A stretch of 64,000 nt of DNA from a bacterium (GCA_041690355.1 JAWLHK010000003.1:109428-173427), one strand, 5' to 3'; positions 45,433 through 57,828 are shown, numbered from the stretch's first letter. Notes: generated by a model from the letters alone, not told the origin. Made by a program: numbers and translations.

Positions 45433-46272
45433 ATGCAGATCATCGATTTTGACGCCGCCGGCATCCGCCTGCAGGCCGTCGTTCGAGGCGACTCCGCCCG
45501 ACCGGCCGTCCTGTTCCTGCACGGCTTTGCCGACCAGGCGCGGTCCTGGGATTTCACGCTCGATCTTCTCGCCGATCGATATTTCGCGATTGCCCTCGAC
45601 TTCCGCGGCTTCGGCCGCTCTGCTTGGGCCCCCGACGGCGTCTATCACTTTCCCGAATATCAGCTCGACGTGAGCGCGCTCGTCCGCCACCTTAGGCTGC
45701 GCGAAATCGCGATCGTCGGTCACAGCATGGGGGGCAACGTGGCCACCCAGTGGGCTGCGCTCTATCCCGACGCCGTGCGCAGGCTCGTGCTCGTCGAAGG
45801 CTTCGGCCCCCCCGCGCGCAGCCCCGACGAGCTCCCGCGACGCACCGCCACGTGGGTCGAAGCGGTGCTCGGCGGAGAACGGCGCCACCCGCGCGTCATG
45901 GCCTCGCTCGACGAGGTCGCGGCGCGCCTGCAGGAGACCAGCGAACGCCTGACCGACGGGCGCGCACTGCACCTGGCCGAACACGCGAGCCGGAAGGTCG
46001 ACGGCGGATTTACCTGGACCTTCGATCCGGCGCACCGCCGCCCCAATCCCCTCCCCTACATGGACGACACCTTCGTTCCGTTCTGGAAAGGAGTGCGCGC
46101 CCCCGTGCTCGCCGTTCACGGCGACGCCGGGCCGTTCACCTTCGAGGCCCTGGCCGACCGCTATGCGCACATCGGCGCACTCTCGCGCCGCACCGTACCC
46201 GATGCCGGACACAACGTGCACTGGGATCAGCCCGAAGCGCTCGCGCGGATGCTCTCCGAATTCCTCGACTGA
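45433..46272 (+). CDS. Alpha/beta-fold hydrolase
   Basis: 279 aa. 'VLFLHGFADQARSWD', 'IVGHSMGGNVA' (GxSxG), and a C-terminal 'DAGHNVH'. Confidence 0.8.
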   Translation: MQIIDFDAAGIRLQAVVRGDSARPAVLFLHGFADQARSWDFTLDLLADRYFAIALDFRGFGRSAWAPDGVYHFPEYQLDVSALVRHLRLREIAIVGHSMGGNVATQWAALYPDAVRRLVLVEGFGPPARSPDELPRRTATWVEAVLGGERRHPRVMASLDEVAARLQETSERLTDGRALHLAEHASRKVDGGFTWTFDPAHRRPNPLPYMDDTFVPFWKGVRAPVLAVHGDAGPFTFEALADRYAHIGALSRRTVPDAGHNVHWDQPEALARMLSEFLD

Positions 46273-46407
46273 TCGCAGAAGCGAAGCGAGGCCCGTTGCG
46301 CCGCCGCAGATGCCGGAGAGGCGCCGCCGGGCGGGGCTGCGCATCCCGTTCGCCCGGAGCCGCATGCGGCGCAGCGCGGGAGTATGGTGACCGCGAGGGA
46401 GGTCAAC

Positions 46408-46728
46408 ATGGCAACGACAGAAGGAACCGTGTCGCCGCAGTTGGGCGACAGTCGCGAGGGCTGGGCCGAGTCGTCGCGCGTGAGGGCGGCCGCGCTGCTC
46501 GGAGTGGCGGGCGGCATGGGGCTGGGGCTTGCGGCCGGCGCCTGGCTGCAGGATCGGCGCAGCGCAAAGCGGCAATCCAGTTTTCCGCTCTCGGAACGCT
46601 CGACCGAGCAGCTCTTCGGGTATCCGATGGATCTCGGGGAGTACGACGACGAACTGAGCGACGAGCAGCTCTTCATCGTCGTCGATGAAAGTGACGACGA
46701 CTTGCGCGGCGACGGACGGGAGAGCTAG
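46408..46728 (+). CDS. Hypothetical single-pass membrane protein with acidic tail
   Basis: ATG 46408 with GGGAGG 6 nt upstream. GC3-rich frame; one Gly/Ala TM segment. No family recognised. Confidence 0.4.
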   Translation: MATTEGTVSPQLGDSREGWAESSRVRAAALLGVAGGMGLGLAAGAWLQDRRSAKRQSSFPLSERSTEQLFGYPMDLGEYDDELSDEQLFIVVDESDDDLRGDGRES

Positions 46729-46730
46729 GC

Positions 46731-47135
46731 ATGGCCCGGCACGACGCCCGGCACGCCCCGGGGGGAAGGCCGCAGGATCCGCGTTCGGTCAAACACGCCG
46801 GCTACGACGAGTGGACGGTCGCCGCCGTTGCGGCTGCCCTCGCCGTGCTCGGCATCGGCGTGCTGATCGGTGCCCTGGCCCGCAGCGCAACGATTCTCTT
46901 CGTGACGCTCGTGATCGCGGGCCTGCTGTTTCTTTCGCCCTTTCTGCGCGGCGCCATGCTCGCGTCGCAGCGGCGGCGCTCCATCGATCAGCAGTGGATC
47001 CACGGCAAGCCGCCGCAACCGAGGCGCCGCCTGCGCCGCAAGCGGCCGGTTCATGCCGAAGCGGCCCACGAACCCGCCCCGGGCGGGCGACGGCATGCCG
47101 AAGATCTGGAGCAGGAAACCGATCGCAACCGGTGA
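46731..47135 (+). CDS. Hypothetical two-TM membrane protein with Arg-rich tail
   Basis: 134 aa. GC3-rich frame, starting 2 nt after the previous stop. No family recognised. Confidence 0.4.
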   Translation: MARHDARHAPGGRPQDPRSVKHAGYDEWTVAAVAAALAVLGIGVLIGALARSATILFVTLVIAGLLFLSPFLRGAMLASQRRRSIDQQWIHGKPPQPRRRLRRKRPVHAEAAHEPAPGGRRHAEDLEQETDRNR

Positions 47136-47157
47136 GCACGCTCCGGAAACCCACGCT

Positions 47158-47649
47158 TCAGGGAGCCACGGCGTCGAAGAGCTCGACCTCGCCCCCGAGG
47201 TAAACGTGCCCGGCCGCGAGCAGCGCCTGGACGCCGGCATGCGCCGCGTCGTCGGTACCGAAAATGCGCCGGGCCTCTTTCGGCTTGAAGGGGATCCACT
47301 TATCGGTCACGCGGAGCACGCCTACGTCGCGTCCGTCGGGGGTCACGAGGGTTACGTCATCGGCAATCTGCACGTTGCATACCCGCTCGTCGGTCAGGCG
47401 CAGGACAATGGGCATCCGCGGCAATTCGGGCGCCGCCCCTTCGACCACGCGATCGTACTCCTCGCGTCCCATGAAGCCGCGCAGCCCCAGGCACCCGGCG
47501 CCGATCATGGCGAGCACGGCCGCCTCTTCGGGCCGCAGGGCGAGTTTCTTGAGAAAGACCGCGCGCGCGCGCAGCGCTTCGGCTGCTTCGCCGGTCAGAT
47601 ACCGACCCTTGCCGGCCGGCAGATCGAGAATCATCGTCGACATCGTCAT
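47158..47649 (-). CDS. Stand-alone PUA-like domain of ATP sulfurylase (PUA_2-type); no catalytic domain
   Basis: ~160 aa. '[79 protein letters not shown]' aligns by eye to sulfurylase N-domains. ATG 47649 overlaps the cysC stop; ATG 47643 has a better-spaced GGAGGA. Confidence 0.65.
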
Positions 47650-48281
47650 TCCTCCACCAATGTGCGCCGGGCTCGCAGAAGCACGTCGCGGATTTCCTGT
47701 TCCTGTTCGGGTGTCAGCGGTTCGAGCCCGGCCCGCGACGGCTCCAGGTACCCAAGCAGTTCTGCCGCGCGGATGATCTTGGTCGCCCCGAGGGCGACGG
47801 AGTCGCGACCGTCGGAGTTTACGATCACCTCGGGCGCTTCGGGGGCCTCGTAGGGATCGCTGACCCCCGTGAAGTGCGGTATTTCTCCGGCCATCGCTTT
47901 CCGGTACAGCCCCTTCACGTCGCGCGCTGAGACTGCATCGAGTCCCGCCGCTGCATAGACCTCGAGAAAGTTGCCGTCGAGGTGCATGGCGCGCACCTCG
48001 GCGCGCAGCGTGCGATAGGGGCTGATGGCCGCCGCAATGGCGATGACCTCGTTGCGGGCGAGCAGGTCGCAGACAAACCCGATTCGCAGGACATTGGTCT
48101 CGCGGTCTTCACGCGAGAAACCGAGCCCCCGGCTCAGGTGCGTACGCACGGCGTCGCCGTCGAGCACCTCGACCTTGCGTTCGCCCCGGTCGGCGAGCCG
48201 ACGCACCAGCTCGGCGCTCAAGGTGGACTTTCCGGAGCCCGACAGGCCGGTGAACCAGACGGTGAATCCCTTGCGGATCAT
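47646..48281 (-). CDS. cysC: Adenylyl-sulfate (APS) kinase
   Basis: 211 aa. '[17 protein letters not shown]', '[21 protein letters not shown]', plus a ~30-aa C-terminal extension. Confidence 0.9.
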
Positions 48282-49378
48282 CAGATATCGGCCCCCAGGT
48301 TGTCTTCGGGATCGACCTCGGCCGCTTCGGGGCCGCGCCAGTCCTGGTCCATTTCGTCGCGGGCGATCTTATTGACCTCATCCTGAAGCTCACGTAGAAT
48401 CGCCGTCTCGACGTCGTGCAGCAACGGGCTCAGCGGGTCGCGCGGCCGCAGGGCGTGGATGCGGAACTCGCGCTTGATGCGTCCGGGGCGCGCGCCGAAG
48501 ACGATCACGCGGTCGGCGAGGCGCGAGGCCTCCTGCACCGAGTGCGTCACGAGGATGATCGTCTTCTTGGTCGCCAGCCAGATTTTCTGGAGTTCGTCGT
48601 GCAGCAGGTCGCGGGTCTGGGCGTCGAGCGCGCCGAAGGGCTCGTCGAGCAGCAGGATCTCGGGCTCCATGGCGAGCGCGCGGGCCAGCGCAGCCCGCTG
48701 GCGCATGCCCCCCGAGAGTTCGTGCACGTAGCTCTCGGCAAAACTCGACAGGTGCACCATGCGCAGGTAGTGCAAGGCGCGCTCTCTGCGCTGCGGGCGG
48801 GAAACGCCGTGCAGCTTGAGGCCGAATTCCACGTTCCCCCTGACCGTGAGCCAGGGAAAAAGGGCCGCCTCCTGAAACATGACGAAGCGCTGCGTGCTCG
48901 CGCCGCGAATCGGTCTACCGTGGTGCAGGGCCTCGCCCGCGTCGGCAGTCTCCAGGCCCGCCAGAACGTTCAGCAGCGTCGTTTTTCCGCATCCGGACGG
49001 CCCGACGAAGGCGACGAACTCACCGGCGTGAATGTTCAGGGAGACGTTCTCGAGCGCGAAGGTAACCTGCCGGGGCCCGCGCGTGAAGGTCTTCGAAACG
49101 CCGCGGATGGCGAGCAGCAGCTCGGGCGCTTCGGGGCGCACGTTCTTGGAGATGCGGACGCGGGTGGGCTCTTCGGTGCGTTTGACTTCAAGTCCGGCCA
49201 GGCGGCAGAAGCGTTCGAGCTCCTCGTCGCGGAACGTGGCTTCTCTGCCGGCGACCAGCTCAAGCGTTTCGCCGTCGGCAATGCCGTCGAGCGCCGCCCG
49301 CACCTGCGGCAGCACCGACTGATCGGCGTCCAGCGCGAGCACGTGCTGAAGCGAGAGGGGGCGCTCGGCGGCGTTCAA
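48281..49378 (-). CDS. ABC-transporter ATPase (NitT/TauT-like) with N-terminal TusA/SirA-like domain lacking the Cys
   Basis: Probable TTG start at 49378, with GGGAGG 6 nt upstream, just after the JAMM stop. N-terminal ~95 aa: '[52 protein letters not shown]'. Then Walker A 'GPSGCGKTT', signature 'LSGGMRQR' and Walker B 'LLLDEP'. Confidence 0.7.
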
Positions 49379-49391
49379 CAGGCGCCTCCCG

Positions 49392-50153
49392 CTACTCGAC
49401 AATCCCCAGCTCGATCGGCTCGACCCGCACCCCCTGCGATTCGAGCCAGGCGAGCGCCCGGTCGATCTCTTCGCGGGTCGACTCGAGGCCGAGGCCGACG
49501 AGGGCGATGTCACCCGAAACGGTGGCCGAGCGGATGTTGGTCACGACGTCGAACTTGCGGGCCATCTCCCAGACCAGAGGACGCTTGATCCCTTCCCGGT
49601 CGAAGGTCAGATAGACCTTGCGGCGGATCCGATCGCCGGCGGCGCGGCGGCGCCCCTGGGTGGCCTCTTCGATTTCGAGCTGCATCCGGTCGTAATCGGC
49701 GCGCTTGGCCTCGGGGGGCTCGATGCGCGCGACCTGCGTCTCGATGCGCATGAAGCTCGATTCGTCTTCGGTCAGCACGTAGGTCTGCTGCGTGACGGCG
49801 ACCCCGTCGAGCACCTGCACGATCATCCACAGAAAGCCCGGCCAGCCCTTGGCGAAGCCGAGATCGGTGTAGGAGGGCACGTCGGGGTGGTTGGGGTGCG
49901 AGTGGTAGAACCCGAGGATCTGACGCCCGGTACCGCGCAGGCTCTTCTCGACCTGGTTGTACTGCTTCGGATCGATCTCGAAATAGTCGGTGCGCGTGCC
50001 GGCCTGCGTGTTCTCGGCGAGCACCACTTCGTCGACGACCGGATCGAGCCCCTTCCACGAGCCCAGCAGGAGGCCGCAGCCCTCGGCGGGAAAGGTCGAA
50101 GCGACGTGGCGGAAAACGGTGGCCAGGGCCTGGCCGGGAATGTGCAGCATCAT
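49392..50153 (-). CDS. JAMM/MPN+ metalloprotease (Mec-like) fused to a C-terminal NIL domain
   Basis: 253 aa. 'EGCGLLLG' and 'GFYHSHPNHPDVPSYTD' (JAMM motif). The C-terminal 'KVYLTFDREGIKRPLVWEMARKFDVVTNIRSATVSGDIALVGLGLESTREEIDRALAWLESQGVRVEPIE' matches the MetN-type NIL domain. The ATG overlaps the cysM stop. Confidence 0.8.
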   Translation of the reverse strand: MMLHIPGQALATVFRHVASTFPAEGCGLLLGSWKGLDPVVDEVVLAENTQAGTRTDYFEIDPKQYNQVEKSLRGTGRQILGFYHSHPNHPDVPSYTDLGFAKGWPGFLWMIVQVLDGVAVTQQTYVLTEDESSFMRIETQVARIEPPEAKRADYDRMQLEIEEATQGRRRAAGDRIRRKVYLTFDREGIKRPLVWEMARKFDVVTNIRSATVSGDIALVGLGLESTREEIDRALAWLESQGVRVEPIELGIVE

Positions 50154-51139
50154 CGGACGGTTTTTCCTTCTTCGAATTCCCAGGTACGGGTCGACATGTA
50201 CTTGTCACCTCGGTCGGGCATGACGGCGACGACGACCCCTTCGTCGAGGCCGCGGGCCAGCTCGAGCGCCGCCACAGCGGCCGCGCCCGAACTCTGGCCA
50301 ACGAAGATCCCCTCTTCGCGGGCCAGCCGGCGGGTCATCTCGTAGGCGGCCTCGGTCTCGACCGGAATCTTGCCGTCGAGCCGATCCTCATGATAAATGC
50401 CCGGCACGATGGAGCTCTCCATATGCTTGAGCCCTTCAAGACCGTGAAAAGGGTTGTCGGGCTCGCAAGCGAAAACCCTGACTTCCGGATTGAGCCGGCG
50501 CAGCCCCTCTCCCGTACCCATGACGGTGCCCCCCGTTCCGATCGAGGCGACGAAGTGCGTGATGCGGCCGCCCGTCTGCTCGAAGATTTCGCGCGCCGTG
50601 GCCAGGTGCGCCTTGGGGTTCGAGGGGTTGTTGTACTGATCGGGCTTGAAGTACTTCTCCGGCTCGTTGTGCAGAATCTCGCGGCTCTTCAGGATGGCGC
50701 CGTCCGATCCCTCCATGGGATCGGTGAAGATGATGCGCGCGCCGTAGTTGCTCAGAATCTTCTTGCGCTCGACGCTGACGTTGCCGGGCATGCAGAGTTC
50801 GACCGGAAATCCGAGCACGGCCCCGATGAGGGCATAGGCGATGCCCGTGTTGCCGCTGGTCGAGTCGAGCAGCACCTTACCGTCGGTGAACCGGCCGTCT
50901 GCGATGGCATCGCGCACCATCTGCAGCGCGGGACGATCCTTTACCGAGCCGCCGGGGTTCATGCCCTCGAGCTTCAGCCAGACCTCGACACGCTCGGGAA
51001 GATCGGGGGCGATATGGCGCAGACGCACGAGCGGCGTGTTGCCGACCATGCGCAGGACGGTGCCGGCGATGGCGGCGTCGACGTCGGCAAAACGGCGGCG
51101 GAATTCCATCATCGGCATGGCTCGAGCGAGCGCGTCCAT
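50150..51139 (-). CDS. cysM: CysM-type cysteine synthase (O-phosphoserine/thiocarboxylate-dependent type by similarity)
   Basis: Start set to ATG 51139, downstream of the cysO stop. 'GNTPLVRL', 'KLEGMNPGGSVKDRPA', 'DSTSGNTGIAYA', 'ACEPDNPFHGLEGLKHMESSIVPGIY', as in actinobacterial CysM. Confidence 0.8.
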   Translation of the reverse strand: MDALARAMPMMEFRRRFADVDAAIAGTVLRMVGNTPLVRLRHIAPDLPERVEVWLKLEGMNPGGSVKDRPALQMVRDAIADGRFTDGKVLLDSTSGNTGIAYALIGAVLGFPVELCMPGNVSVERKKILSNYGARIIFTDPMEGSDGAILKSREILHNEPEKYFKPDQYNNPSNPKAHLATAREIFEQTGGRITHFVASIGTGGTVMGTGEGLRRLNPEVRVFACEPDNPFHGLEGLKHMESSIVPGIYHEDRLDGKIPVETEAAYEMTRRLAREEGIFVGQSSGAAAVAALELARGLDEGVVVAVMPDRGDKYMSTRTWEFEEGKTVR

Positions 51140-51164
51140 GACTCTCCCCGGAAACCCGATTTCC

Positions 51165-51443
51165 TCAGCGACCGCCGGCAATGGCGGGAATGATGCTGAG
51201 CTCGTCGCCATCCTTGACGGCGGTCGACGTGTTCTGCAGGAAGCGGATGTCTTCGTCGTTCACGTAGATGTTCACGAACTTGCGCAGCGCGCCCTCGCCA
51301 TCCTGCAGGCGGTCACCGATGCCGGGATGCGCGGCTTCGAGGTTCTTCAGGACTTCGGCGACGGTGGCGCCTTCGACCTGGACCTCTTCCTGGTTCGAGG
51401 TCAGCTTGCGAAGGGGGGTCGGGATGCGAACGGTAACGGCCAT
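51165..51443 (-). CDS. cysO: CysO-like ThiS/MoaD-family sulfur-carrier protein ending ..AGG-R
   Basis: ATG 51443 with GGAG upstream. 92 aa: 'MAVTVRIPTPLR..FVNIYVNDEDIRF..DGDELSIIPAIAGGR'. One residue follows the diglycine. Confidence 0.85.
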   Translation of the reverse strand: MAVTVRIPTPLRKLTSNQEEVQVEGATVAEVLKNLEAAHPGIGDRLQDGEGALRKFVNIYVNDEDIRFLQNTSTAVKDGDELSIIPAIAGGR

Positions 51444-51495
51444 GGCTATCACTCCAGGACTGGTAGTAGTTAACGAAAAACGGATCGGCTTCGCC

Positions 51496-52743
51496 TCAGG
51501 TGCGGGCGGGCTCTTTGCCGATTTCGGCGTACAGCGCTTCGAATTCGGTCAGCTTCGGATTGATGACGCGGGGCTGTTTCAGGCGCCCGGTGACCGCCTC
51601 GAGGGTCTTGTAGCCGTTACCGGTCACGCTGACGACGATCGACTCGTCCTTGGGGATGCGCCCCTGCTGAATGAGCTTGATGGCGACGGCGAGCGTCGTG
51701 CCCCCGGCCGGTTCGGTGAAAATCCCCTCGGTGCGCGCGAGCAGCTGAATGGCGTCGACGATTTCGTCGTCGGTCGCCTTCTCGCCCCAGCCGCCCGTCT
51801 GCCGCACGTCCTGCATGACGTAGTAGCCGTCGGCCGGATTGCCGATGGCGATGCTCTTGGCGATCGTCTGCGGCTTGACCGGCCGGATGAGGTCGCTCCC
51901 CTCATGGATGGCGTTCACGACCGGAGCGCTGCCGGCCGCCTGGGCCGAATAGATCTTGAAGGGCTGCTCGGGGATCAGGCCGACCTGCATCATCTCGCGG
52001 AAACCCTTGGCGATCTTGGGGAGAATCGTGCCCCCGGCGGTCGGCACCACGATATGCTGCGGCACGCGCCAGCCGAGCTGCTCGGCGATCTCGAACCCGT
52101 AGGTCTTGGCCCCCTCGGTGTAAAAGGGGCGCAGATTGATGTTCACGAAGGCCCACTTGTACCGCTCGGCGATTTCGGTGCAGAGGCGGTTGACTTCGTC
52201 GTAGTTACCCTCGATGGCGACGGCGTGCGGATCGTAGATGGTCGAACCGATGACCTTGCCCTGCTCGAGGTTCGAGGGAATGAAGATGAAGCAGCGCATG
52301 CCGCTGCGGGCCGCGTGGGCGCTCACCGAGTTGGCCAGGTTGCCCGTGCTCGCGCAGGAGACGGTGTCGAAGCCGAACTCCTTGGCCTTCGAGACGGCGA
52401 CCGAGACGACGCGGTCCTTGTACGAGAAGGTCGGGTGGTTGACCGAGTCGTCCTTGATGTAGAGCTCCCTGACCCCCAGCTCGGCGGCCAGCCGGTTGGC
52501 CCGCACGAGGGGCGTCATGCCCGAGTAGTGCCCGGTGACCGGCTCGCCGTCGACGGGGAGCAGCTCGCGGTAGCGCCACAGGCTCTGCGATCGCGATTCG
52601 ACCACGCTGCGGCTGATCGCCTTCGTAATGCCGTCGTAATCGTATTGAACTTCGAGGGGACCGAAGCAGAACTCACAGACGTGCAACGGGGCCTTCGGAT
52701 ACTCCTGGCCACACTCCTTGCACTTCAAACCGGTCACGAACAT
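51496..52743 (-). CDS. Threonine synthase-family PLP enzyme (paralogue in sulfur-carrier context)
   Basis: ATG 52743 with AAGAGG upstream. N-terminal Zn-ribbon 'CKECGQEY..CEFCFGPLE' and 'FSYKDRVVSVAVSKAKEFG' with the PLP Lys. Confidence 0.8.
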   Translation of the reverse strand: MFVTGLKCKECGQEYPKAPLHVCEFCFGPLEVQYDYDGITKAISRSVVESRSQSLWRYRELLPVDGEPVTGHYSGMTPLVRANRLAAELGVRELYIKDDSVNHPTFSYKDRVVSVAVSKAKEFGFDTVSCASTGNLANSVSAHAARSGMRCFIFIPSNLEQGKVIGSTIYDPHAVAIEGNYDEVNRLCTEIAERYKWAFVNINLRPFYTEGAKTYGFEIAEQLGWRVPQHIVVPTAGGTILPKIAKGFREMMQVGLIPEQPFKIYSAQAAGSAPVVNAIHEGSDLIRPVKPQTIAKSIAIGNPADGYYVMQDVRQTGGWGEKATDDEIVDAIQLLARTEGIFTEPAGGTTLAVAIKLIQQGRIPKDESIVVSVTGNGYKTLEAVTGRLKQPRVINPKLTEFEALYAEIGKEPART

Positions 52744-52820
52744 GAAAAACCTCTTGCTGTCGCAATATCCTGCCGGTCGCGCCGGCACGGGCGGGATTCC
52801 CGCCGCTCTTCCTACTTCAA

Positions 52821-53750
52821 TTACTTGTCGATCGACAGATAGCGCTCGCCCGTGTCGCAGAGCACGGTGACCACGTTGCGTCCGGCCCCCAGCGAGGCGG
52901 CCACCTTCAGGGCGGCGTATACGTTGGCGCCCGACGAAACGCCGACAAACAGCCCTTCTTCGAGCGCGAGCCGCTTCTTCATGGCGGTCGCTTCGTCGTC
53001 GTCGACCTTCATGATATCGTCAATCAGCGCGCGATTCAGGTTGCCCGGCACGAAGCCGGCGCCGATCCCCTGGATGCCGTGCGGGCCGGCGCGCCCTTCG
53101 GAGAGCACCGGGCTGCGCAGCGGTTCGACGGCGATCAGCTTCGTCGCGTGGCCGGCCTCGCGCAGCGCTTCACCGACGCCCGAAATCGTGCCCCCCGTGC
53201 CGACGCCGGCGACGAACGCGTCGATGCTGCGCCCTTCCATCTGCGCGATGATCTCGGGACCCGTCGAACGCTTGTGGGCGGCGGGGTTGGCCGGATTCTC
53301 GAACTGCATCGGCATGAAGTAGCCGCTCTTCTGCTGCAGCTCGCGCGCCAGGCGGATAGCCCCCTCCATGCCCTCCTCGCGCGGGGTGAGCATCAGCTCT
53401 GCCCCGTAGGCTCGCAGCAGGCTGCGGCGCTCGACGCTCATGCTCTCGGGCATCGTGAGAATGAGCCGGTACTTCTTGACGGCGCAGACGAGCGCGAGCC
53501 CGATGCCGGTATTGCCGCTCGTGGGCTCGACGACGGCGTCGCCCGGCTTGAGCAGGCCGCGCTTCTCGGCGTCTTCGATCATGGCCAGGCAGATGCGATC
53601 TTTGACCGAACCGGCCGGATTGGCGCTTTCGAGTTTGACATAGACGTCGGCCGAAGCCTTGCCGACCAGATAGTTCAGCTTGACCAGGGGCGTCTGCCCG
53701 ATGGCCTGCGTGATCTCTTCGAAGCGAGCGGGGCGGCGTGTTTCGAGCAT
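52821..53750 (-). CDS. cysK: Cysteine synthase A (O-acetylserine sulfhydrylase)
   Basis: ATG 53750. '[10 protein letters not shown]', '[15 protein letters not shown]', '[12 protein letters not shown]', '[10 protein letters not shown]'. Confidence 0.9.
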
Positions 53751-53752
53751 GT

Positions 53753-54199
53753 TCAAATCTGGTAGATGAAGGAACGGTTGCGATCCCGATCGAGCATCTG
53801 CTTGAGAGGCGCGTCGAGCAGGTCGGCCAGGCTGATTGAGCCGACGGTCGACTCGACCCGGTCGTAGACGTTGTTCAGATAGCGGGTCGGGGCGTCGACA
53901 TCGGCCGGGCGCGTGTGTTGATCGTCCTGGCCGAAGTGCTTCTCGTCAAGAATGCGCAGAACGTCGAGCAGGGTGATCTCTTCGGGCGGGCGCGCGAGCC
54001 GGTATCCGCCTTCGATGCCGCGCTGCGACAGAAGGATCCCGCCGCGTTTCAACTTGAGCAGAATCTGCTCGAGAAAGCGGTGGGGAACGCGGATCTGGCC
54101 GCCGAGCTCCGAAACCGAGGCCCGCGCACCCTCTTTCACGAAGGCAAGATAATAGAGCGCCTTGAGTCCGTACTCGGTTTTTTTGCCGAAGGTCATCAT
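53753..54199 (-). CDS. Rrf2-family transcriptional regulator without cysteines (CymR-like)
   Basis: Start at ATG 54199/54196 ([19 protein letters not shown]). wHTH '[42 protein letters not shown]'. There are no Cys residues at all. Confidence 0.8.
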
Positions 54200-54292
54200 T
54201 GCCTTCAGCGTAGCATAGGCTACCAATTCACTCAACATGAAACCCGATTGTTCCGGTCATCTGGGCGGAAACACTCGGTTTTCACCCGGCGT

Positions 54293-56755
54293 TCAGGGCG
54301 GGCGGTCTGCCGCGGAACGTTCGGGCGGGGGCGTGTCCGGCTCGAAGAATCCCGCCGTCTCGGCGAGCTCCCGCAGCGCGAGCCACGGGGTGTCCTCCGC
54401 CCATCCGCGGATGCGCCAGCGGCCCCGCCGCGCCCGCGCGGTCAGGGTACCCCGCTCGTCGGTGCGGTGAATGCGGACCCCATGTACCGCAAGCCGCGCG
54501 AGCGTCTCGGGATGGGGATGGCGGAAGCGGTTCTGAAACCCGACTGAAATGAGCGCATCGCGGGGACGGACGGCCCGCAGCAGCTCAAGGGTCGAACTCG
54601 TACGCGAGCCGTGGTGTCCGGCTTTCAGGAGCGCGCAGGGGAGCGCCCCCCTTCGGATCAGCGCACGTTCGGCCTCGGCCTCGGCATCGCCGCTCAACAG
54701 CGCGCACGCCCCGGCGCCATCGACGAGCCGCAGAACGAGCGACCGGTTGTTCGGTTCGCGGTCATGGAGAAATGCGGGGTCGGGGTGCTCCACCGCGATG
54801 TGCACCCCCTGCCAGACCAGTTGCCGGCCGGCGACCCACTCCGCAACGGGAACCGCATGGGTTCGGGCCGCCGCGAAGACCGCTTCGTGGCCGCCGGCGT
54901 AGCCGTCCCGTCCGGCGACGACGAGTTCACCCACCGGTATGGCATGCAGGAGCTGCGCAGCACCGCCCACGTGGTCGAGATGCGGGTGCGTGAGAACGAG
55001 CCGGTCCAGCGTGAAGATCCGCTTGGCGCGGAAGTAGGGCTGCAACGTGCGCGTAAAGATTTCACCCGCTTTCCATCCGCCCCCCGTGTCGATGAGCATG
55101 TGGCGACCGCGGCTCGAAACGAGCACCGCATCCCCCTGCCCCACCGAGAGAACGTCGATGCGCAGATCGTCCTGCCAGGCGCGACGGCGCAGCCACTCGT
55201 GGCCCCCCGCGAGCAGCAGGGCCAGGCCGCAGGCGCCCCAGGCGAGCCGCTTCCGGCGGCGCGATCCCGTTTTCCGGGCCACGGTGGCGGCGACCAGAAG
55301 CGCGAGCAGCAGAAAGAATTCCACCGTATCGATCTGCAGGCGCAGGGCCGCGCCGGGGACCGCCGCGAACCACGCGGCAAGCCGCAGGGCGACTCCGGCG
55401 GCGGCTTCATAGAGGAACCAGGGGAGCGGTAACGCGGGCCACGCGGCGGTGACCAGGGCGTACAGGAACGTCAGCGGCGTAAGCAGGACCGAGACGTACG
55501 GAATGAGGGGCAGATTCGCCGGGACGCCGACGAGAGAAGCCTGCGCAAAGTGAAAGGTGGTGAGCGGCAGCGTCCACAGCGTCGACACCAGCGACCCGGC
55601 CAGGGCGGCGGTCAGATACCGCTTCGCATGCGCGAAACGCTTCGCCTCCAATTCCGCCGGCAGCGCGGCCGACCACGCGATGGCCGCGAACACGGCCGCG
55701 AAACTGAGCTGGAACGACGGCGAGAATACCAGCCACGGGTCGGCCGCCAGCATCAGCAGGCCGGCCCAGCCCAGGCTCGCCATGCCGCCCACGGTCGGGC
55801 CGAACATGCGCAGCACCAGCGTGACCGAGACCATCGCCAGGGCCCGCAACACCGGCGGCTGCGCGCCCGTAAGCAGTGCATAGAGCACGAGAAGCGGAAT
55901 CGCCAGCACGCCGCTCAGGCGCGCGACGGGAATGCGCTGCAGGAGCCAGGGCGAGCGCGAAAGGACGAACCGCCACCCGCCGCGCAGGAGCAGAAACAGG
56001 ATCCCGAGGTGCAGTCCGCTGATGGCCACCAGGTGCACGACGCCGGCGTCGCGCCACTGCGCGCGCACCGCGTCGGGGAGCCGATACTGCGCGCCGACGG
56101 CCAGGGCGGCGAAGAGTCCGCCGTGCGCGGGAGACAGACGCCCGGCCGCGGCGAAGATGCGCCCGCGGACCCGCGCGAGCCCCTCTGCGAGCGCTCCCGG
56201 AGGCCGCACGATCACCCAGTCCCCTTCCCGCACCCGCCCCTGCAGAAACACCCCTTCGGCATTGCGGCGCGCCACCCGATCGTACTCCCCGGCAATCCCC
56301 AGCGTGCGAAAGGGGTGCAGCCGTGCGCGGATGCGTACCGTGGCGCCGTAGGGCGGCGCGCCCTCCGCGTCCCCCTCGAAGCGCAGATCGACGCCCGTGT
56401 CGATGCGGCGCCAGTCCTGCCCCTGGCGCCAGGCCAGCAGGCCTCCTTCGGCCACGATGCCGAACGGGTATTCCCGCGGAAAGGTCGCGATGAGCACGAG
56501 CAGCTCGCGCTCTTCGCTCCCGAGCTGTTCCACCGTCGACGGCGCAGGCGCCCGCGGGGCCGCCAGAAAGCCGGCCGCGAGCCCCGAGACGAAAAAGGCG
56601 GCCGCGAGAAGCCAGCGTTGACGTCGCGGGCGCGGACGCAGCGCAAGGGCGATGAACAGCGCGATTCCCCCGGCGGCAGCCGAAACGGATTCGTCTATGG
56701 CGGAAAAGAGAATCCCGAGCGCGAAGGCGCCGAACGCACGGAGCGAGGCGGGCAT
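54293..56755 (-). CDS. comEC: DNA internalisation-related competence protein ComEC/Rec2
   Basis: 820 aa. Polytopic competence domain plus a C-terminal MBL fold: 'DVLSVGQGDAVLV..MLIDTGGG', 'LTHPHLDHVGG', 'KAGHHGS'. Confidence 0.9.
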   Translation of the reverse strand: MPASLRAFGAFALGILFSAIDESVSAAAGGIALFIALALRPRPRRQRWLLAAAFFVSGLAAGFLAAPRAPAPSTVEQLGSEERELLVLIATFPREYPFGIVAEGGLLAWRQGQDWRRIDTGVDLRFEGDAEGAPPYGATVRIRARLHPFRTLGIAGEYDRVARRNAEGVFLQGRVREGDWVIVRPPGALAEGLARVRGRIFAAAGRLSPAHGGLFAALAVGAQYRLPDAVRAQWRDAGVVHLVAISGLHLGILFLLLRGGWRFVLSRSPWLLQRIPVARLSGVLAIPLLVLYALLTGAQPPVLRALAMVSVTLVLRMFGPTVGGMASLGWAGLLMLAADPWLVFSPSFQLSFAAVFAAIAWSAALPAELEAKRFAHAKRYLTAALAGSLVSTLWTLPLTTFHFAQASLVGVPANLPLIPYVSVLLTPLTFLYALVTAAWPALPLPWFLYEAAAGVALRLAAWFAAVPGAALRLQIDTVEFFLLLALLVAATVARKTGSRRRKRLAWGACGLALLLAGGHEWLRRRAWQDDLRIDVLSVGQGDAVLVSSRGRHMLIDTGGGWKAGEIFTRTLQPYFRAKRIFTLDRLVLTHPHLDHVGGAAQLLHAIPVGELVVAGRDGYAGGHEAVFAAARTHAVPVAEWVAGRQLVWQGVHIAVEHPDPAFLHDREPNNRSLVLRLVDGAGACALLSGDAEAEAERALIRRGALPCALLKAGHHGSRTSSTLELLRAVRPRDALISVGFQNRFRHPHPETLARLAVHGVRIHRTDERGTLTARARRGRWRIRGWAEDTPWLALRELAETAGFFEPDTPPPERSAADRPP

Positions 56756-56922
56756 GCGGCGAACCTAGCACGGCATGGCGGAAAAGGACAAGAAAAAAGC
56801 GACATTCGCGTCCGTCCACGGCTCCCCTCCGCCGCGGGGCAGAGTACAATGAGGCGATCCGTAAGGCGGTGCGCACGGTAAGGCGCTGCCGCCTTCTTCA
56901 CGTACCAGCGGCGGAAATGACC

Positions 56923-57828
56923 ATGCGCTATCTCATCACAGGGGCGACGGGGTTCATCGGGAAACGGCTGCTCGGCATGCTGCGGGAGCGCGGCGACGAA
57001 ATCTACGTCCTCTCCCGCAATCCGGTGCGCGCCGGGGCCCTGCCGGGGGTGCGCGAGGCCTTCGGCTGGCCCGACCACGAGACCCCCTTCCCTGTCGCCG
57101 CGCTGCATGGGGTCGACGCGGTCATCAATCTCGCCGGCGAGCCGGTCATCGGCCGGTTTACCGAGGGGCACAAGAAGAAGGTGCTCGAGAGCCGCGTGTT
57201 CGGCACGCGGGCGCTGGTCGAGGCGATGGCGCACGTCGATCCGCGGCCGCGCGTCCTCGTGTCCAGTTCCGCCGTCGGGTACTACGGCGACCGGGGTGAC
57301 GAAACCTTGACCGAAGCGTCACCCTCGGGCCAGGGATTTCTCGCCGAGGTCTGTCGCCGCTGGGAAGACGAGGCGCGTAAGGCAGAGCCTCTCGGGGTGC
57401 GCACTGCCGTCATCCGGACGGGCATCGTGCTCGGCCGCGGCGGCGGGATGCTGAAGCAGATTCTCCCGCCGTTCCGTCTCGGGCTCGGCGGGCCGTTGGG
57501 CAACGGGCAGTTCTGGATGCCCTGGATTCACATCGATGACCTCTGCCGTCTCTACCTGCACGCGGCCACCGAGGGGCTGGCGCCGGCCTACAACGGTTCG
57601 GCGCCGCATCCGGTCACGAACCTGGTCTTCACGAAGGTGCTCGGCCACGTCGTGCGGCGCCCGACCCTGTTCCGCGTCCCCCGTCTCGCCATGCGCGCCG
57701 CCCTCGGCGAAGGTGCGGTCGATGCCGCGCTGCAGAGCGCGAAGGCCCTCCCGAACGCGGCAGAACGGGAGGGATTCCGCTTTCTCTACCCGCACCTCGA
57801 AGCGGCGTTACAGGCCGAAGCCCGTTAA
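56923..57828 (+). CDS. TIGR01777-type NAD-dependent epimerase-family protein (YfcH-like, DUF1731 C-terminus)
   Basis: 'MRYLITGATGFIGKRL' Rossmann start (ATG 56917 also possible). 'SSSAVGYYGD' and C-terminal 'RVPRLAMRAALGEGA'. Confidence 0.8.
   Translation: MRYLITGATGFIGKRLLGMLRERGDEIYVLSRNPVRAGALPGVREAFGWPDHETPFPVAALHGVDAVINLAGEPVIGRFTEGHKKKVLESRVFGTRALVEAMAHVDPRPRVLVSSSAVGYYGDRGDETLTEASPSGQGFLAEVCRRWEDEARKAEPLGVRTAVIRTGIVLGRGGGMLKQILPPFRLGLGGPLGNGQFWMPWIHIDDLCRLYLHAATEGLAPAYNGSAPHPVTNLVFTKVLGHVVRRPTLFRVPRLAMRAALGEGAVDAALQSAKALPNAAEREGFRFLYPHLEAALQAEAR

Follow-up and report, generated by a model that had tools for sequence, protein, structure and literature searches.

Bacillus subtilis possesses a CymR-CysK regulatory pair for cysteine metabolism, and Wolinella succinogenes reportedly has an HcyS/HcyD/HcyF/MetY system, which Krishnamoorthy and Begley are said to have described in 2011. 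In mycobacteria, MoeZR is the shared E1 of the sulfur carriers, among them that of the Mycobacterium tuberculosis CysO/CysM/Mec system (PMC3227635). In Streptomyces albulus, on the account given in Table 2 of PMC13759103 and in PMC12172450, MetM makes homocysteine from O-phosphohomoserine and the thiocarboxylate of MetO, with the participation of Mec and MoeZ (Hasebe 2024); a cyanobacterial homologue did not show MetM behaviour in vivo (PMC12172450). Here we analyse a nine-gene sulfur operon at positions 47158-54199 of a 64,000-nucleotide stretch of bacterial DNA (GCA_041690355.1, JAWLHK010000003.1:109428-173427; the whole stretch is hereafter the window). It places a single ThiS-family carrier between a cysteine synthase gene and a gene for a candidate homocysteine-forming enzyme. 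Judged from its gene content, we consider it very probable that this operon serves both cysteine and homocysteine synthesis, with the sulfur carried on this one ThiS-family protein and the remaining parts of the pathway encoded elsewhere in the genome.

Pfam and NCBIfam profile scans of the nine open reading frames (ORFs; scores in bits throughout) upheld every domain call of an earlier note on this DNA, that of the TusA-like domain only through sequence and fold matches below threshold. As the earlier description of co-oriented, closely spaced genes had it, the ORFs are all encoded on the minus strand, spanning 47158-54199. At the core of the operon is a ThiS/MoaD-family sulfur carrier of the CysO/MetO kind (51165..51443; PF02597 71 bits, SAMP1 64 bits), which ends in Gly-Gly-Arg; its tail, ...IIPAIAGGR, is kept in all six orthologues, and every carrier of the clade ends in AGGR. 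The gene for a CysM-type cysteine synthase (50150..51139) adjoins the carrier gene on one side. On the other lies a ThrC-family pyridoxal phosphate (PLP) enzyme with an N-terminal zinc ribbon (51496..52743; PALP plus a NinF-type ribbon), a candidate MetM. This gene is a paralogue, because the canonical ThrC, to which its product is 34% identical, sits in a hom-thrC operon at C11:118335-119381 (C denotes contigs of this genome). The operon protein shares 44-72% identity with ThrC-like proteins from unrelated contigs, where their genes neighbour those for ThiS, NIL, ThiF or JAMM; its profile matches included no Pfam or NCBIfam model for MetM. With the CysM and ThrC-like genes on either side of it, the carrier is most simply read as feeding two branches, one of the CysM/CysO/Mec type to cysteine and one of the MetM/MetO type to homocysteine. 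In another contig (L048:1830-2442), the ThrC-like and NIL genes are separated by a tandem pair of ThiS-family genes, whose identity to the window carrier is 52% and 63%.

The domain scans also bore out that the nine genes include no E1, no catalytic domain of the ATP sulfurylase Sat, no permease and no binding protein. The earlier note had offered two explanations, an activating step performed by a non-canonical component or missing parts that are simply encoded elsewhere, and searches of the whole genome (4.64 Mb in 42 contigs, with an estimated completeness of 100%) show the latter to be right: an E1, CysD/CysN, CysH and one orphan permease were all located outside the operon. The E1, which the note had proposed to seek as a moeZ/thiF-rhodanese gene, is encoded by the single ThiF-family gene that scores above its cut-off genome-wide (C6:84138-85304, 388 aa; NF006444 580 bits, cut-off 449). 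The protein combines an N-terminal rhodanese domain (PF00581), whose loop sequence YCAGGVRS looks active, with a C-terminal ThiF domain (PF00899) and two Cys pairs, an order reversed relative to MoeZ. The gene begins 15 nt past that of a NirA-type sulfite reductase (the pair spanning C6:82423-85304), and the same adjacency is seen in three sister-family genomes. Apart from the operon carrier, the genome has ThiS-family genes only as thiS, located with thiG and thiE, and as moaD, located with moaE. With a sole ThiF-type E1 and three ThiS-family genes, one E1 must therefore serve three carriers, for which MoeZR provides a precedent (PMC3227635). The proposed search for sat or cysDN had a divided outcome: CysD (462 bits) and CysN (556 bits, without a fused kinase) are encoded at C7:~138954-141217, and no sat was found, as detailed below. 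CysH (273 bits) is encoded at C21:17100-17783 (the same gene as L008:9601-10284). This protein carries Cys-Cys at 114-115, CxxC at 197-200 and an ECGLH motif. Such a Cys-Cys/CxxC/ECGLH signature is usually that of adenosine 5'-phosphosulfate (APS)-specific iron-sulfur reductases.

Taken together, these parts would allow the following route. The carrier would be made with a ...Gly-Gly-Arg end, from which the JAMM protease would trim the Arg, as reasoned from known families. The sole rhodanese::ThiF E1, acting likewise on ThiS and MoaD, would adenylate the carrier and then form its thiocarboxylate, which CysM would combine with O-phosphoserine and the ThrC-like enzyme, like MetM, with O-phosphohomoserine. 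The JAMM protease would finally free the amino acid and restore the carrier. CysK would provide a sulfide route in parallel to the carrier route, and sulfate would be activated by CysDN and then reduced by the APS-reductase-type CysH and the NirA-type sulfite reductase, all encoded outside the operon.

The arrangement of the operon is conserved in relatives, as the gene-order comparison suggested in the earlier note revealed. The order Rrf2-CysK-ThrC-like-ThiS-CysM-JAMM(+NIL)-CysC-PUA_2 was seen, to the end of each contig, in six other contigs, one from a genome of the same family (L010) and five from metagenomes (L016, L018, L019, L051 and L052), and where the contig reaches far enough the shared neighbourhood extends upstream to ComEC and an epimerase gene. 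Protein identity among the operon orthologues is 55-86% for every gene but the PUA_2 one (33-43%), and the ratio of nonsynonymous to synonymous divergence (dN/dS) of the core genes is 0.05-0.3. The fused or split genes could have turned out to be inherited independently of the CysO module, but JAMM-NIL and PUA_2 are co-conserved with it, and the TusA-like::ABC gene occupies the same slot in two further lineages. Judging from these orthologues, the three accessories (NIL, PUA_2 and TusA-like::ABC) are conserved and not accidental. The system otherwise follows known thiocarboxylate pathways, from which it is set apart by JAMM::NIL, the remnant of Sat and the ATP-binding cassette (ABC) ATPase with its TusA-like domain.

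The first of these accessories is carried by a Mec-like JAMM metalloprotease fused to a NIL domain (49392..50153; PF14464 63 bits, PF09383 43.9 bits). Its JAMM motif, H-x-H-x7-S-x2-D, is complete and reads HSHPNHPDVPSYTD. In an AlphaFold2 (AF2) model with a mean predicted local distance difference test (pLDDT) score of 93.9, the JAMM domain (residues 1-142) is joined by a long helix (148-171) to the NIL domain (175-246), and the best fold match of the model is PfJAMM1-SAMP2. The window shares the JAMM::NIL fusion with four further contigs (L010, L016, L017 and L052); in L018 and L051, NIL has an overlapping gene of its own. A contig scan with the JAMM::NIL protein alone returned one locus. A HMMER search with the 84-residue NIL part gave 384 cluster representatives, which are mostly free NIL proteins of 80-110 aa or tandem NIL proteins of about 180 aa, proteins of MetN length being rare among them. 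All six of the closest relatives that were looked up lie beside ThrC-like, ThiS, ThiF or JAMM genes, and three of the six are carrier-GlyGly-NIL fusions (L043:262-978, L049:7752-8327 and L050:17-520) encoded next to ThiF and JAMM genes on unrelated contigs of metagenome or genome origin. We note that activation of the carrier in such fusions requires NIL to be cut off after Gly-Gly, and that the L043 ORF, in which a ThrC-like fragment comes first, appears chimeric.

As both JAMM::NIL and, in other phyla, carrier::NIL proteins occur, NIL is tied to the carrier machinery by two kinds of fusion; a literature search found no paper describing such a link. The domain, which repeatedly accompanies carrier modules of this kind, probably binds methionine or homocysteine, or else docks the carrier. 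A more specific proposal, which we put forward only tentatively, is that ubiquitin-like sulfur carriers have in NIL a third partner dedicated to them, made in different lineages as a free protein, as a carrier-GlyGly-NIL precursor or as the C-terminal domain of JAMM, and that in the JAMM fusion it gates both carrier maturation and amino-acid release according to the level of methionine or homocysteine. If true, this would be a thiocarboxylate route with an end-product sensor built into its protease. In any case, JAMM::NIL is a second fusion, independent of the carrier::NIL ones, that links the uncharacterised NIL protein to the carrier machinery, and it narrows down where NIL acts.

At the downstream end of the operon, a gene for the APS kinase CysC (47646..48281; PF01583 194 bits, TIGR00455 198 bits against a cut-off of 139) is followed by one encoding a stand-alone PUA_2 domain (47158..47649; PF14306 90.5 bits). 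The PUA_2 ORF covers positions 11-158 of the 159 in the PF14306 profile, can be aligned with the N-terminal domain of complete Sat proteins from the sister family, and ends at the domain boundary. The Sat catalytic domain (PF01747, with its QTRNP and HRAH motifs) is absent from this ORF and has no match genome-wide. Sister-family genomes have a complete Sat gene directly after JAMM. The phylum is represented by five species within a set of 199,900 genomes, falling into two families, and across these five genomes Sat and CysD are complementary: Sat is present in three without CysD, and CysD in two without Sat. The sulfate-activating enzyme distinguishes the two families, one with Sat and the other with CysDN. 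All four PUA_2 remnants available for comparison stop at the same boundary and share a conserved core of about 30 residues, although they diverge two to five times as fast as the neighbouring genes (dN 0.57-0.63, dN/dS 0.37-0.59). On these comparisons, the PUA_2 gene is a domain-exact remnant of Sat, kept after CysDN displaced Sat, and the remnant is probably still functional. A role as a partner of CysC would be a guess. The locus documents a replacement of Sat by CysDN in which one domain was retained, in a phylum whose metabolism is little known and which has only five species representatives in the set searched.

Between the JAMM::NIL and cysC genes lies the gene of an ABC ATPase of the NitT/TauT family (48281..49378; PF00005 115 bits), which carries at its N-terminus a TusA-like domain that is Cys-less in the sense of the persulfide position. 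The ATPase scores 236 bits with SaoA and 220 bits with TauB, both below cut-off, and NrtD and SsuB are also among its matches. The N-terminal extension of about 95 residues has a G+C content at third codon positions (GC3) of 0.8-0.93, an in-frame coding signature. Its TusA-like region, residues ~10-80, scores 17 bits with Pfam TusA against a cut-off of 28.6. A single-sequence AF2 model of the domain (pLDDT 63, core 70-77) shows the order beta-alpha-beta-alpha-beta-beta, and its top fold matches in the PDB are E. coli TusA and YeeD (3lvk_B, 1dcj and 8j4c), at weak E-values (2.6e-3 for TusA). The CPxP persulfide Cys is absent in all three orthologues, which have VLPQV there (Cys to Leu). The sequence and model evidence lends only weak to moderate support to a TusA-like identity for this domain. 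The three domains (window 49130-49378, minus strand; L051:10001-10290; L052:1732-2020) also contain an invariant Cys in the second helix, within FC[RTL][LR]AGL, which may have a structural role only or be a reactive cysteine in a shifted position. The extended ATPase gene separates NIL from CysC in three cases (the window, L051 and L052) and is absent from L010, L016 and L018, so that TusA-like::ABC occupies this slot in three of seven lineages, six of them informative at the slot; the L051 and L052 orthologues are 361-362 aa long. A word-based search with the first 105 residues had returned only the query itself, as if the extension were unique to the window, an idea ruled out by these two full-length orthologues, which were found through the ABC part.

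The ATPase has no close paralogue in the genome, the best being 35% identical. Of the seven BPD_transp_1 permease matches in the genome, one is without a nearby ATPase (C2:96492-97295), and this orphan of TauC/SsuC/NrtB type answers the earlier question of an ssu/tau permease elsewhere. Its best families, SaoP, NrtB, TauC and SsuC (all below cut-off), mirror the SaoA, TauB, NrtD and SsuB matches of the ATPase, and both proteins are confined to this genome among the five of the phylum. Family matches and distribution alike suggest that the TusA-like::ABC ATPase probably energises this lone TauC-like permease for the uptake of a sulfur compound. The permease gene overlaps the start of a same-strand 514-aa ORF (the two together spanning C2:95072-97295), which by eye looks like a pyridine-nucleotide-disulfide oxidoreductase (GSGPAG motif), and no ATPase or binding-protein gene is nearby. 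A NasT-like (ANTAR) and NasS-like (NrtA-like) pair was also recognised by eye at C7:93248-95214, near small Rieske-like ORFs; the NasS-like protein, the only NrtA-like one in the genome, is probably cytoplasmic and regulatory.

The operon is headed by an Rrf2-family, CymR-like regulator (53753..54199; PF02082 94.6 bits, TIGR00738 90 bits) whose sequence contains no Cys at all, followed by the O-acetylserine sulfhydrylase CysK (52821..53756; TIGR01139 432.7 bits against a cut-off of 351). The genome encodes a second CysK, 57% identical to that of the operon, at C11:73837-74781. The Cys-free Rrf2 protein and CysK probably constitute a sensor of the CymR/CysK type that controls the operon. A promoter-like element, TTGAG/TTGAC-N17-TATGCT, lies within 54200-54260 of the window (minus strand) and is kept in L016, L018 and L019; because it ends about 15 nt before the Rrf2 start, the leader would be very short. 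Consensus scans for promoters and terminators gave no more sites than in shuffled sequence, and no Rfam family, SAM (S-adenosylmethionine) riboswitches included, matched within 45500-57500. With the cysM start set at the first ATG past the carrier stop codon, the DNA has ATGA overlaps at two junctions, cysM/JAMM and cysC/PUA_2, a one-base overlap (TGATG) at ABC/cysC, and a 2-nt gap or 4-nt overlap at Rrf2/cysK. The JAMM/ABC spacer is 13 nt, with GGGAGG placed six bases (CGCCTG) 5' of the TTG start at 49378, and the other intergenic gaps are 25, 52 and 77 nt. The longest of these, between cysK and the ThrC-like gene (window 52744-52820, minus strand), contains two short GC-rich hairpins, GGCGGGAATCCCGCC and GCCGGCGCGACCGGC, with no T run, which could serve for processing or attenuation where the cysteine half of the operon meets the homocysteine half.

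How firmly can the two-branch carrier pathway be held? Several observations weigh against it, or against parts of it. The CysM-type enzyme reaches 375.7 bits with TIGR01138, slightly below the cut-off of 394.2, and the Rrf2 protein scores 48 bits with the CymR equivalog model NF047409 against a cut-off of 195, which places it in the Rrf2 superfamily only. Elsewhere, the genome encodes a homocysteine synthase of the MetY type (732 bits), together with a second enzyme of trans-sulfuration type; given this MetY-type enzyme and the second CysK, the carrier route is therefore parallel to a sulfide route and not the sole route. The metM gene of S. albulus has a SAM riboswitch, and the window operon has none. 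The same-family genome that contains L010 (G004; 430 contigs, 97% complete) yielded no relative of the E1 at E <= 1e-20, which may reflect an assembly gap or a different E1. CysH being of the APS-reductase type by sequence, PAPS (3'-phosphoadenosine 5'-phosphosulfate) from the operon CysC may lie off the assimilation route. While the E1, CysDN and a permease all proved to be encoded elsewhere, a substrate-binding protein was not found in a limited test, a phmmer search of the genome ORFs with the NasS/NrtA-like protein as the only query, which gave no paralogue. Finally, a single polycistronic mRNA for the nine genes is predicted from their spacing only.

One of these points also bears on the view that the ThrC-like protein is a second threonine synthase, or some other beta/gamma-replacement enzyme, in which case the carrier would serve CysM only and the operon would be a plain one of the M. 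tuberculosis type. The protein clears the TIGR00260 thrC cut-off (280 against 167 bits), the solved structures closest to it are threonine synthases, a separate MetY-type homocysteine synthase is present, and the cyanobacterial homologue was not MetM-like in vivo (PMC12172450). Nonetheless, the genome already has its canonical ThrC in the hom-thrC operon, whereas the paralogue always lies immediately upstream of the carrier gene; in other phyla (L046, L048 and L049) ThrC-like genes accompany ThiS, NIL and ThiF with no CysM; and the orthologous arrangement is that of an established MetM/MetO route, so far as Table 2 of PMC13759103 presents it. We thus regard a carrier dedicated to CysM as quite improbable. 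Somewhat less improbable, though still unlikely, is that the PUA_2 ORF is a decaying Sat pseudogene, and the ABC gene possibly a functionless passenger, their frames kept open by the rarity of stops at 67% G+C. Long chance ORFs are common in this genome, three related operons have no ABC gene, and PUA_2 varies in length (104 to 163 aa) and shows the low identity (against 59-85% for its neighbours) and the high dN given above. However, decay would not readily leave four remnants with an identical domain boundary and a strongly conserved core of about 30 aa, a dN/dS below 1, ATGA coupling to cysC and a PF14306 score still at 90 bits; in addition, the ABC protein is 72-77% identical across three lineages and its N-terminal domain 52-55%. 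By far the least plausible alternative is the variant relay, in which the TusA-like::ABC ATPase or another operon component would load the carrier while PUA_2 and CysC formed a novel sulfate-activating unit. It takes its appeal from an operon without an E1 or a Sat catalytic domain and from an ATPase::TusA-like fusion, conserved in three lineages, placed directly after the carrier genes. Since a complete rhodanese::ThiF E1 and CysDN are encoded elsewhere in the genome, a non-canonical activator is not needed, and this already largely refutes the idea; moreover, L010, L016 and L018 retain the full carrier module with no ABC gene, the TusA-like domain lacks the persulfide cysteine, the nucleotide-binding domain of the ATPase is typical of the NitT/TauT family, at 55-63% identity to the ATPases of ordinary transporters, and the PUA_2 protein has none of the Sat catalytic motifs.

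The two-branch carrier pathway thus remains our preferred account, and the operon offers a clean example of a single carrier placed for both cysteine and homocysteine synthesis. That an apparently incomplete sulfur operon is completed by scattered genes also cautions against inferring the absence of a gene from one window.

The locus can be compared with several described systems. Like the CymR-CysK pair of B. subtilis, the operon is headed by an Rrf2 protein without cluster-binding cysteines, encoded directly before CysK in a cysteine operon; it differs in its 48 bits on the CymR equivalog model (cut-off 195), and complex formation here is putative. As in the W. succinogenes Hcy system, a C-terminal extension of the carrier would be cut by a JAMM-type protease and the E1 gene is linked to sulfite reductase, whereas the homocysteine-forming enzyme is here ThrC-like and MetY is encoded far away. 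The NIL domain has the fold (PF09383) and the methionine or homocysteine link of the C-terminal NIL (C2) domain of MetN and of the NIL/ferredoxin protein, which belongs to the DUF39 homocysteine pathway (PMC5764234), but it stands on a JAMM protease or alone and not on an ABC ATPase or ferredoxin, its closest relatives being small stand-alone or carrier-fused NIL proteins. With M. tuberculosis CysO/CysM/Mec the locus shares a carrier, a CysM-type enzyme and a JAMM hydrolase in one operon, and an E1 that is encoded elsewhere and shared with MoaD (PMC3227635); in contrast, its carrier has an extra C-terminal Arg, hence the need for trimming, and the operon adds Rrf2, CysK, the MetM-like enzyme, NIL, CysC and PUA_2. 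Finally, with S. albulus MetM/MetO, to the extent that the cited accounts describe that system, it shares a ThrC-family gene adjoining a ThiS-family carrier gene, together with a JAMM hydrolase and a rhodanese-containing ThiF E1. Against those accounts, the JAMM protein here bears a NIL domain, the rhodanese of the E1 is N-terminal instead of C-terminal and its gene adjoins that of sulfite reductase, and CysM also flanks the carrier, so that one carrier probably serves both amino acids.

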